64,000 nucleotides of DNA from positions 6,176-70,175 of the IMG/VR virus record IMGVR_UViG_3300001525_000178, one strand, 5' to 3'. Positions within the stretch are counted from its first letter, which is position 1. Every line of letters begins with the position of its first letter. The translations under genes and the position numbers were made by a program. The notes below the pieces were generated by a model. The model did not search any database, was not told the origin of the DNA, and saw only the letters and a program-made list of their open reading frames with translations. This DNA is from a virus. Taxonomy: Duplodnaviria; Caudoviricetes. This document shows, one piece after another, positions 21,078 to 31,568 of this stretch.

Positions 21078-21788
21078 TTATAGATTATTCTCCAATCTTT
21101 CAATTCCGATATTGTAATATTTTTCTTCTAATTCAATACCTATAAACTTTCTACCAAGATTTTGGCAAGCAATCCCTGTCGTATATGAGCCAGCAAAACA
21201 ATCAAGTATCACTTGATTTTTTAAACTATGTAGTTCAACGTATTCTTCGATTAATTTAACAGGCTTTTGTGTTGGGTGAAGCCTATTTTTACCGCTTACA
21301 ATTGGATAGTTTTTTGTTTTTGACTTAATTTCGAAGGGTGCTTTATCGTTCCAACTTGCACCCTTACCTCTTACAAACACTATAAATTCTAAATTATTTA
21401 CATGTTTCCCATTACATAAAGGTGATGGATTTGTTTTATTCCAAGTCAATAGTGTAGTTGATAAGTTTTTATTTTCAAAATAAGACATTATCTTACTAAT
21501 TTGTTTATTGGAACAAAAAATTAATAAATTAGGTATCTTACAGATTTTCAACATTCTTGAAAAGACTTTGTCATAATTAAATCCTTTTGATATAAAGTCA
21601 ATATCGACACCCACTTTTGTCGCACGTTTTCCTAGTGCAGTTAATCCACCACCATGTATATCATGCTCGTATGGTGGGTCTGTAATGATTGTGTCAACTT
21701 TTACTCCTTTTTCAATTAATTTATCCATGACTTCTATGTAGTCACCGTTAAACAATATTGACTCACCTATTTTTTTACACTGTATCAT
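21078..21788 (-). CDS. N4/N6 DNA methyltransferase (beta class)
   Basis: IITDPPY, HPTQKP, LDCFAGSYTT, FIGIE. Confidence 0.92.
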   Translation of the reverse strand: MIQCKKIGESILFNGDYIEVMDKLIEKGVKVDTIITDPPYEHDIHGGGLTALGKRATKVGVDIDFISKGFNYDKVFSRMLKICKIPNLLIFCSNKQISKIMSYFENKNLSTTLLTWNKTNPSPLCNGKHVNNLEFIVFVRGKGASWNDKAPFEIKSKTKNYPIVSGKNRLHPTQKPVKLIEEYVELHSLKNQVILDCFAGSYTTGIACQNLGRKFIGIELEEKYYNIGIERLENNL

Positions 21789-21814
21789 TATTTAATTTTC
21801 CTTCCTTAATTTCA

Positions 21815-21843
21815 ATTATAGCATGACTTTCGTTTTTTGTCAA
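21815..21843 (-). promoter_or_regulatory. Sigma70-type promoter
   Basis: TTGACA-17bp-TATAAT. Confidence 0.8.
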
Positions 21844-21957
21844 ACACTTTGTTCCAAAAAGTTTACAAAATATACAAATAAAAAGAAAAAGCAGACACGG
21901 CGAGATTGTGTCTGCGAAATATTTATACATTTTACCTCTATAAATTTTGTTTTTAAT

Positions 21958-22028
21958 CACAGAAACTAGGATTTGAACCTAGACAACCAATTTTGGAGAT
22001 TGGTATGCTACCATTACATTATCTCTGC
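21958..22028 (-). tRNA. tRNA-Trp(CCA)
   Basis: Cloverleaf: GCAGAGA/TTTCTGT, anticodon arm CCAAT-CTCCAAA-ATTGG, T arm CTAGG-TTCAAAT-CCTAG; CCA not encoded. Confidence 0.9.
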
Positions 22029-22037
22029 TTATACGTT

Positions 22038-22155
22038 TGAACGATACAAGGCTCGAACTTGCATTTCTTATATCTATCATCTCATAAATTCCCTTTGATG
22101 AAAAGTTGGTCGCTTTTTCGATATAAGTGTGTTATTCCTTTGACACTAATCGCTC
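22038..22155 (-). ncRNA. tRNA-like RNA with a 44-nt insertion in the anticodon loop
   Basis: Acceptor GAGCGAT/ATCGTTC, D arm GTGT/ACAC, T arm GCAAG-TTCGAGC-CTTGT, anticodon stem CTTAT/ATAAG enclosing 51 nt. Confidence 0.75.
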
Positions 22156-22169
22156 ATTAAAAATTGTTT

Positions 22170-22242
22170 GAGTGATAGGTGGCTATTAACCACATCTTCT
22201 AGCCACAACGCTAGACATTTTAAACTTAAACTACGTATCACC
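22170..22242 (-). tRNA. Degenerate tRNA-His(GTG)-like gene
   Basis: Acceptor GGTGATA/TATCACT, anticodon stem TCTAG/CTAGA with 8-nt loop CGTTGTGG, degenerate T loop TTAATAG. Confidence 0.5.
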
Positions 22243-22254
22243 TTGTTTACTAAA

Positions 22255-22330
22255 TGGTGGCGGTGGAAGGAGTTGAACCTATCTACCTCTAGGTTATGAG
22301 CCTAGCGTGCAACCGTTACACTTCACCGCA
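22255..22330 (-). tRNA. tRNA-Met(CAT) (initiator, elongator or Ile2 identity uncertain)
   Basis: CTAGG-CTCATAA-CCTAG, encoded 3' ACCA, 1:72 mismatch. Confidence 0.88.
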
Positions 22331-22335
22331 ATATT

Positions 22336-22703
22336 TGAGCGATTATGGCAAGAACCACTTGCCTTGTTGCGTTCGCTCATTCGCAAACCTAACAGGATTT
22401 CATGCCCGAATTGATTGAATTGGTTAATTTCACTTCACAGTTACAACTCTTTAGCACTTGTACTTCGCGCCTTGTATTATGAAAGCAATCCATTTTTCAA
22501 TGTGTTAGGTCGAGTTTTAAAAGGTTCGCCGAAGCGTTCCAATACCCTTTTCTACACTTTGGTAGATAGGTTGCGTCGAGGAGTAGCCCCCGACCGTGAC
22601 AGGCGACCGAGTGCGTTTAGCACAGCCACCTTCTGAAATTGTACCAGACTGCGTGCAGATGTGATACAAAATCGTTTCCCTGTGTTCAACGTGGAACATG
22701 GGG
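22336..22703 (-). ncRNA. Candidate large structured non-coding RNA
   Basis: GC-enriched non-coding stretch with many hairpins, a cUUCGg tetraloop and an 8-bp long-range helix; lies between promoter 22769-22797 and the tRNAs. Confidence 0.6.
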
Positions 22704-22768
22704 TATTAAGTTTATTGTTTTATTATTTAATTTTAAATGTGCAATTCGTTTTGTCTTTCAACATGCTT

Positions 22769-22797
22769 ATTATATCATGCTTTTTTATTTTTGTCAA
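22769..22797 (-). promoter_or_regulatory. Sigma70-type promoter for the ncRNA/tRNA operon
   Basis: TTGACA-17bp-TATAAT overlapping the end of the upstream CDS. Confidence 0.85.
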
Positions 22798-23332
22798 GTG
22801 TTTTATTTAAGTTTTTATTTTCTTGTTTGAAATCATAAACTTTCTTGCGTAAATTAATATTTTCACTACTTAATCTTGCAATAATTTCAGTTGACAATCT
22901 TTTATTTAATTCCTTTTCATGTAATTGCTTTGCACTTCTTATGCATGTAACTGAATTTATGTTATCTACTACCAAAATTCCATATTTCGGATTTATTTCA
23001 TCAATTTGATTTATGATTTCTTCTTTATATTCTTTATACATTTCAGTCGGAAAAGCATAATAAAATAAAGTTGGTTGTTTATCTTTTCTTGTTCGTGTAC
23101 TTAGATATTTTTTATGTTTTGGTTTATTTTTGTCTTTGTAAAAATCGACCATGCTTATCTTAACTTCCACTTCGACAAATTTATCTTTCATATCGTATGC
23201 GACAACATCTTTTAATAGAAATTCAGTACAAACCATTTTATATTGATTTTTAAATCGAAAATATGATGATAACGCAATCTTCATAAAATCTGCTGTTATC
23301 TTTGGATTTTTATAATCTTTCCAAACTTTCAT
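22775..23332 (-). CDS. PD-(D/E)XK-fold (MmcB-like) protein
   Basis: EF..KDVVAY...VEVEVKISMVDFYKD...KH, LFYYAFP, YGILVV. Confidence 0.6.
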   Translation of the reverse strand: MKVWKDYKNPKITADFMKIALSSYFRFKNQYKMVCTEFLLKDVVAYDMKDKFVEVEVKISMVDFYKDKNKPKHKKYLSTRTRKDKQPTLFYYAFPTEMYKEYKEEIINQIDEINPKYGILVVDNINSVTCIRSAKQLHEKELNKRLSTEIIARLSSENINLRKKVYDFKQENKNLNKTLDKNKKA

Positions 23333-30641: not shown

Positions 30642-31568
30642 TTATTTTTCCATTTCCATATATTCTTCATAGTATATAAAGTGCAGTCTACCACATGTTT
30701 TTCGTTCATGTTTACATACTTTTGCAATACTGCTTGCACATAGGTTTAAATCTTTACTAGATTCTCTTATTGTGTTATAGGTTTTTAAATTTTCCAAACA
30801 CACTATCCTCTTACCCTTTCCATACATTGTATTGTTTTCGCCAATTCTATCTTTTATTTTATAAAGAGTTAAATCAATATTGCTATATTCATTTAAATAG
30901 CAAAAACGCAAACCGTTTACATGCTTTCTTTTATGTTTACATACTTTTACCAAATTTTCTTTAAATAAGTTTAAACTTTTTGCACATTCAGTTACACTAT
31001 TATAAACAATACCTGTATCTATACAAATTACCTTTTTAGGTTCTTCAAAAACATATTCCTTATTTTCGTCATAATCGCTCAAATACATAAAATGCAAGCC
31101 ATGTGTGCTTTTTTGATTACCACAACAAACTGATGATATACATCTAGCACCTATATTGATATCTTTTGCACAGTCTTTTACTAATTTATATATACCCCCT
31201 GTTTCTAAACAGATAACGGGCTTCATATTGCTTTCACTAATTTTTCTTCTAGATTCTTCTGTCGGTATATAACCGCAATTACCATGTTTTCCACCGCTTG
31301 CAATATTATATCCAAATTCTCTTTGATTTGATTTATAATATTTTATCATTTCAATTTCAAACATTTCTGCTTGTTCTTTTGTAAGGTTGACCAAGACAAC
31401 TTCATGTTCAAAATTATTCCAATCATATTTTTGAATAGCAGAGTAGAAATATTTATTATTCTTATATCCATTACCGTTATTACCCCATCTTTTTCGTGGA
31501 GTTCTACTTGTAATTCCTATGTATGTTTTACTATTTATTTTGTTTGTATGAATATAAACTGTAAACAA
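30642..31568 (-). CDS. Free-standing GIY-YIG homing endonuclease with NUMOD repeats
   Basis: VYIHTNKINSKTYIGIT, WGNNGNGY, GYNIASGG, three KxVICLET-type repeats. Confidence 0.9.
   Translation of the reverse strand: MFTVYIHTNKINSKTYIGITSRTPRKRWGNNGNGYKNNKYFYSAIQKYDWNNFEHEVVLVNLTKEQAEMFEIEMIKYYKSNQREFGYNIASGGKHGNCGYIPTEESRRKISESNMKPVICLETGGIYKLVKDCAKDINIGARCISSVCCGNQKSTHGLHFMYLSDYDENKEYVFEEPKKVICIDTGIVYNSVTECAKSLNLFKENLVKVCKHKRKHVNGLRFCYLNEYSNIDLTLYKIKDRIGENNTMYGKGKRIVCLENLKTYNTIRESSKDLNLCASSIAKVCKHERKTCGRLHFIYYEEYMEMEK

Follow-up and report, generated by a model that had tools for sequence, protein, structure and literature searches.

The window, by which we mean the whole stretch of 64,000 nucleotides of phage DNA that was analysed and that belongs to a 70-kb viral contig of IMG/VR, carries a GC-rich block upstream of tRNA-Met and tRNA-Trp, the only two tRNAs called in the operon by ARAGORN and Rfam. 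Because both tRNA genes lie on the minus strand, the block is to be read in minus-strand sense, in which the order of elements is promoter, AT-rich leader, GC-rich block, tRNA-Met, tRNA-like gene, tRNA-Trp and terminator. The individual features are as follows:

22797-22769, minus strand: sigma-70 promoter TTGACA-17-TATAAT with an extended -10 TG, 12/12 matches, kept in all related loci
22704-22762, minus strand: AT-rich leader of ~60 nt, kept in all locus types up to UUGCACAUU (from alignments)
22703-22336, minus strand: GC-rich block, 368 nt
22635-22703, minus strand: module A, two hairpins (A1 at 22703-22678, A2 at 22673-22635)
22575-22630, minus strand: module B, optional, two hairpins, compensatory changes in both
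22527-22572, minus strand: module C, two hairpins, nearly invariant in sequence
22387-22510, minus strand: body of domain E, with helix P1, joining strands, a GUGC/GCAU helix and a variable hairpin
22336-22386, minus strand: 3' pseudoknot and minihelix of domain E, H-type, helices 4-6 paired at 95-100%
22386-22382 with 22371-22367, minus strand: stem S1, UUGCG with CGCAA (UUGUCA/UGACAA in locus L006)
22379-22373 with 22342-22336, minus strand: stem S2, UGAGCGA with UCGCUCA (UGGGCGA/UUGCCCA in L006)
22379-22336, minus strand: 3' mini-domain, acceptor-like and T-like helices only
22363-22347, minus strand: hairpin in loop 3, GGCAAG-UGGUU-CUUGCC (GUUGAG/CUCGAU in L006)
22330-22255, minus strand: tRNA-Met (CAU), 5 nt downstream of domain E (ARAGORN and Rfam)
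22038-22158, minus strand: odd tRNA-like gene in which an insert replaces the anticodon loop (repeat pair I11 and alignment)
22028-21958, minus strand: tRNA-Trp (CCA) (ARAGORN and Rfam)
21915-21886, minus strand: intrinsic terminator, consisting of the hairpin GCAGACAC..GUGUCUGC and a trailing U run, the end of the RNA-only operon

The promoter overlaps the end of a 185-aa gene, and transcription is predicted to start at ~22762. Rfam (E<=10) aligned the terminator, in a weak match, with the terminator portion of CyaR, and a second promoter with 12/12 matches, at 21843-21815, opens the next, protein-coding unit. In total, the promoter, the same-strand tRNAs, the terminator and the separate promoter of the next unit indicate in silico that the block heads a self-contained RNA-only operon of ~875 nt and, as is the case for RNAs of the T4 RNAC/RNAD kind, shares one transcription unit with tRNAs.

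This operon sits in the phage replication module, and its neighbours encode a PD-(D/E)XK nuclease, C5 and N6 methylases, DnaG and DnaB. An N6/N4 DNA methylase gene (21078-21843, minus strand) with its own 12/12 promoter separates the tRNA operon from DnaB in the window; in relatives tRNA-Trp is followed directly by DnaB. The position between exonuclease/primase genes and DnaB, the strong promoter and the adjoining AT-rich DNA would suit a replication-origin transcript, i.e. a primer or R-loop RNA of the replication module, but given that tRNAs and a terminator form the end of the unit, that no iterons were found and that some close relatives are entirely without the block, we regard this as very improbable.

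A preliminary description of this DNA had reported a GC-enriched, structured, non-coding block behind a consensus promoter. The GC content across 22300-22700 is 0.42-0.49 compared to 0.23-0.30 in the flanks, the promoter is a perfect match, and every hairpin, the long-range helix and the 3' mini-domain that had been listed were located again in minus-strand sense. Relative to shuffled sequence, the block has a fold z-score of -2.63 when read as the minus strand, compared to -1.46 for the plus strand, and invariant G:U pairs in domain E and in the 5' modules, which would be C:A on the opposite strand, fit the minus strand only. The sole long ORF in the block has 60 codons and spans modules A to C; a protein-coding reading was rejected because relatives have this ORF truncated to 28 or 45 aa or not at all, and the lack of conservation indicates that the region is non-coding. 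Combining these data with the compensatory changes in homologues described below, the sequence comparison confirms that the block is a genuine structured non-coding RNA, as yet unclassified, on the strand of the tRNAs, and we consider it highly probable that its core is real.

The same description had called the block unassigned and perhaps a new class, shorter than GOLLD and ROOL, and had proposed a covariance-model scan as a check. A scan of the whole window with Rfam 15 at gathering thresholds gave no family for the block, and across 21800-23000, where E<=10 and permissive filters were used, the two tRNAs were the only matches in the operon and the 368-nt block remained without a match, neither GOLLD (RF01998) nor ROOL (RF03087) being found. 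In the relatives' loci Rfam at E<=0.5 returned tRNAs only, and again no ROOL.

Related loci were retrieved by way of the homologues of the upstream 185-aa gene in a large protein collection together with the contigs of the cluster members, giving 39 loci. Homologues of the RNA were found only in one tight clade of close relatives from pig-faeces assemblies; PRJEB26961, one source project of these loci, is a pig-faeces metagenome series (PMC10783016). The DnaB proteins of the relatives belong to one 90%-identity cluster, with a DnaB nucleotide identity to the window of 88-91%, and in the comparison with locus L009 the flanking gene has 64% nucleotide identity and the RNA modules 82-90%. Searches of GenBank phages (blastn, the queries being the RNA of the window and the complete operon of locus L003) gave tRNA matches only. 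IMG/VR gave no relatives by way of the neighbouring proteins, and four RNA motifs found there either nothing or chance matches, all rejected by the covariance models. A pattern of the invariant motifs had five chance matches with no extended similarity in JGI metagenomes and GTDB genomes, and in more distant phages (DnaB 44-61% identical) the region near DnaB has no tRNAs and no such RNA. By these comparisons the block belongs to none of the families tested and is a new RNA family, so far of one phage clade.

That the block represents a single RNA class of ~370 nt, as had been proposed, is not borne out by the relatives. Based on a locus alignment and on two covariance models, one for domain E and one for the 5' domain, domain E (22510-22336, minus strand; ~175 nt in the window and a core of 175-220 nt overall) stands alone, directly after the leader, in three loci (L006, L007 and L040), 5' modules and E are found together in at least 12 distinct loci, and eight loci (L041, L042, L058-L062 and L064) are without any module. 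Module B was found only in the window, L009 and L011, whereas the window has no module D, a pair of hairpins that most relatives carry between C and E; in complete loci, A and C lie only upstream of E, and A, B and C never occur without it. From this pattern we conclude that the block is a string of independent, exchangeable folded modules and not one 370-nt molecule. The full, core-only and absent states occur among near-identical phages, which implies that the RNA is dispensable and polymorphic. At L040, visual inspection suggests that A, C and D were lost in a simple deletion bounded by two short UAUAA repeats. No partner protein that co-varies with the RNA was visible within a few kb of the flanks.

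Several further variants were observed at these loci. In L050 an additional tRNA-Met precedes the 5' modules, and in L009 (1999-2090) the position of tRNA-Met is taken by a different, longer tRNA-like sequence without an ARAGORN call. In relatives (L041:3330-3880, L003:4260-4700) a further non-coding stretch of ~450-550 nt, GC-richer by eye and absent from the window, separates a tRNA-Pro-like gene from the tRNA-like gene. The only Rfam match of this stretch is a weak, partial tmRNA (15 bits, E 0.024), and a relationship to domain E was rejected on finding no match to the E model with filters off.

The fold of domain E is well supported by covariation. Its closing helix P1 is the 8-bp long-range helix of the preliminary description, formed by ACCUAACA (22510-22503) with UGUUAGGU (22394-22387); the helix is present and has two compensated pairs (GCCUAACA/UGUUAGGC in L009 and ACCUAACG/CGUUAGGU in L006), but it closes the 3' domain only and not the whole 370 nt. 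Little or no variation was seen in the joining strands GAAAAGUGGAUUGCU and CGAAGUACAAGUGCUAA, the invariant single strands measuring 15-17 nt. The variable hairpin has four compensated pairs and a loop with an invariant UAACCA. In the pseudoknot region helices 4-6 have 2, 1 and 3 compensated pairs, respectively, two of these lying in S1. Covariation had been proposed as a check on the structure, and across an alignment of 15 distinct sequences from about four lineages of this one narrow clade 94% of the cells are paired and 12 pairs have changed on both sides, compared to 2.5 in shuffles (0/500 reach 12) and 1-2 when the partners are slid. The lineages are few and related, so that independent events are few; the shuffle counts should not be read as probabilities.

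A loop-loop contact is suggested by complementarity between the invariant UAACCA loop and the pentaloop UGGU(U/A) of the 3' hairpin, itself invariant; since neither loop ever varies, this contact is one that we infer from complementarity. An HDV-like ribozyme topology for domain E was rejected by inspection, there being no P3/L3 between S2a and S1b, and recurrent CAAGUG-like words were dropped as they are not conserved in the window. The 3' end of the RNA is identical over 16 bases to 31070-31085 on the plus strand (BLAST E 0.005), within ORF 30642-31568 on the minus strand, a GIY-YIG/NUMOD homing-endonuclease gene, and because the identity is to the strand opposite this ORF, the RNA tail is complementary to the homing-endonuclease mRNA. 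This was the only notable antisense target in a search within the window, and the match was not seen in those relatives' loci that could be checked.

The 5' modules are for the most part invariant. In module A, helix A1 (CCC..UGUUC/GAACA..GGG, 22703-22678) never varies, and helix A2 (UUGUAUCA/UGGUACAA, within 22673-22635) has a U:A to C:G compensation. The clearest compensation is in module B: its first hairpin (GGUGGC..GUCGCC, within 22630-22602) has an inner stem that reads GUGC/GCAC, GGUU/AACC or GGUG/CAUC across three lineages, and its second (22594-22575) changes from GUCGGGG/CCUCGAC to GUUGGGG/CCUCAAC. Module C consists of ACCU-UCUAC..GUAGA-GGGU and a CGC-loop-GCG hairpin; as its helices never vary, its structure is unproven. 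The cUUCGg loop that had been reported is indeed present (CGC-UUCG-GCG, 22536-22527), but it is peculiar to the window, the relatives carrying UUAG or CAUUG. Across the 5' modules 97.5% of the cells are paired, yet most helices are without any variation and are thus weakly tested; six pairs have changed on both sides compared to 3.0 in shuffles (reached in 2/500).

The arrangement of a constant core behind changeable 5' modules recalls GOLLD, whose 3' region is conserved and whose 5' region varies (10.1101/2024.12.08.627333). Like GOLLD and ROOL, which are phage or prophage RNAs, the block lies near a tRNA island, and the L003 and L006 types carry an optional hairpin with a palindromic UCAUGA loop, so that a miniature relative or analogue of these RNAs, i.e. 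an RNA-only homo-oligomeric assembly beside phage tRNAs, has to be considered. However, neither model matches at E<=10, the palindromic loop is missing from the window, and the RNA is far shorter: GOLLD and ROOL are cages of 580 to >800 nt, whereas the RNA described here measures 175-500 nt and is not known to form multimers. We therefore judge this explanation to be quite improbable.

The 3' mini-domain had been likened to an acceptor stem plus T arm, and in an evolutionary sense this proved right. The mini-domain and the tRNA-like gene (22158-22038) both begin with AAUGAGCGA, have a GCAAG/CUUG stem in common and share the end AUCG(C/U)UCAAA, and from these similarities the mini-domain is a paralogue of the acceptor and T arms of the tRNA-like gene. 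In L006 both read GGGCGA (an A-to-G change) with a compensating C in the 3' strand, which indicates concerted evolution or a shared constraint; in the tRNA-like gene of L006 this is a change of A2:U71 to G2:C71. The mini-domain is without D and anticodon arms, its loop measures 5 nt and its linker 4 nt, and S1 locks it; by the missing arms, the short loop and this lock it represents the remodelled remnant of a tRNA rather than a true tRNA, and at E<=10 no tRNA model (RF00005) matched within 22336-22703.

This paralogy raises the question of whether the block is decaying debris of tRNA duplications, i.e. tRNA-like pseudogenes that drift without function. The presence/absence polymorphism is in agreement with such decay, as is an exact reverse-complementary match of 12 nt between the 5' strand of module C and tRNA-Met. 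Drift would hardly have kept P1, S1, S2 and the hairpins paired through compensatory changes, nor long invariant strands where a flanking gene is only 64% identical, and the failure of any tRNA model to match inside the block also argues against debris, which we consider unlikely. The 12 nt of module C, the invariant AACCUAUCUACC (22561-22572), are complementary at 12/12 positions to GGUAGAUAGGUU (22276-22287) in the variable/T region of tRNA-Met (repeat pair I9). The tRNA-Met stretch is retained in loci without module C, and L009 is without the complementary match; the complementarity may reflect chance, a trace of duplication or pairing in cis.

G3:U70 together with A73 is the alanine identity set, which is also used by tmRNA. 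The tRNA-like gene adjoining the block has both and is conserved in all lineages, and the block is, like tmRNA (RF00023), rich in pseudoknots with a tRNA-derived acceptor/T-arm element. A tmRNA-like message module, in which a tag template and pseudoknots head the phage tRNA operon, could also draw on a frame that starts at an invariant GCU and, in each lineage, meets a stop after 9-12 codons. This reading is already disfavoured and has very little probability. The GCU-start frames, aligned across four lineages, encode wholly different peptides with different stops (e.g. AFIIQGAKYKC, ANTVFNGWS and ANAVHKTLVHDK), none with a hydrophobic ALAA-like tail, so that there is no conserved tag frame; ARAGORN found no tmRNA, and neither RF00023 nor its variants matched the block. 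Moreover, the acceptor helix of tmRNA joins its 5' and 3' ends through a G3:U70-bearing domain that encloses the whole RNA, whereas that of the mini-domain has G3:C70 and no CCA and encloses only ~30 nt.

The loci without modules bear on whether the block is needed by the tRNAs that follow it. In all eight, a 75-nt element joins the same leader to tRNA-Met; this element (AACAAGUGAAUAU..GGGGCGCUGUGAGUAGAAGCCC..ACGAAGUACCCUAA; L041:3080-3170, and likewise in L042, L058-L062 and L064) has the word ACGAAGUAC in common with the invariant strand of domain E. The block is always immediately upstream of a tRNA, natural variants dispense with it, and the tRNA-derived 3' end of domain E could simply recruit processing enzymes, all of which would fit a purely cis-acting leader whose folds space, stabilize or help to process the tRNA precursor and which has no life after cleavage. 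However, because the loci without the block keep the same tRNAs behind the same promoter and the 75-nt element, the tRNAs do not need it, and a pseudoknotted fold of 175 nt with invariant strands of 15-17 nt exceeds the needs of a spacer. We consider the leader explanation possible but doubtful.

Combining the RNA-only operon, the conserved fold of domain E, the cassette behaviour and the tRNA-derived 3' knot 5 nt from tRNA-Met, all of which come from sequence and its comparison, we suggest that the modules are exchangeable cassettes which, once cut out of a tRNA precursor, remain as accessory RNAs that act in trans, and as the best explanation of the whole we give this model a probability of about 0.5. 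In this model, host RNA polymerase would transcribe the RNA-only operon, and the core would be a compact fold made up of helix P1 (8 bp), a junction of several helices with invariant single strands and, built on the tRNA-derived minihelix, the 3' H-type pseudoknot. Cleavage by RNase P at the 5' end of tRNA-Met would free the upstream RNA and set its 3' end, and the pseudoknot, 5 nt from this new end, would shield the RNA against 3' exonucleases. The released RNA could then act in trans, its invariant strands binding a partner of the host or of the phage, with an accessory function that would probably lie in host takeover or counter-defence. Action in trans and counter-defence are parts that we infer; an accessory role in host interaction is suggested because near-identical phages carry all, part or none of the RNA, although its natural loss would also fit a neutral element. 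In a bolder version, to which we attach much less weight, domain E would be a new compact class of pseudoknotted phage RNA, derived from a tRNA gene and endowed with its own biochemical activity (capture of a partner, self-assembly or catalysis), and related phages would exchange it and its add-on modules as an accessory cassette serving host takeover or counter-defence.

Among known systems, the block would work most like RNAC and RNAD (species 1 and 2) of phage T4, examples of stable RNAs that lie inside a phage tRNA operon. These non-tRNA structured RNAs of the T4 tRNA cluster are co-transcribed with it and freed by the tRNA-processing machinery. The likeness, structured non-tRNA RNAs within a phage tRNA operon, is one by description, there being no Rfam model for the T4 RNAs, which are 120-140 nt long whereas the block has a pseudoknotted core of 175-220 nt plus optional modules. 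At the 3' end of vertebrate MALAT1 and MEN-beta, a protective RNA structure is followed by a tRNA-like element (mascRNA) that is cut by RNase P. The block similarly has a stable knot directly upstream of a tRNA whose cleavage by RNase P would make the 3' end; the knot of MALAT1 and MEN-beta is a triple helix, whereas that of the block is an H-type pseudoknot made from a tRNA remnant, belongs to a bacterial, phage-borne system, and its processing is predicted.

Phage tRNA clusters have repeatedly yielded structured RNAs of no assigned role, as exemplified by T4 RNAC and RNAD, GOLLD and ROOL. The significance of the RNA described here is bounded by its narrow distribution in one phage clade. Within this clade, near-identical pig-gut phages with the full RNA, the core only or none constitute a natural experiment without a counterpart at those loci, and these variants open its function to direct comparison. 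Moreover, the remodelling of a tRNA-like gene into a pseudoknotted 3' cap would represent a concrete route by which new structured RNAs may arise in tRNA arrays.
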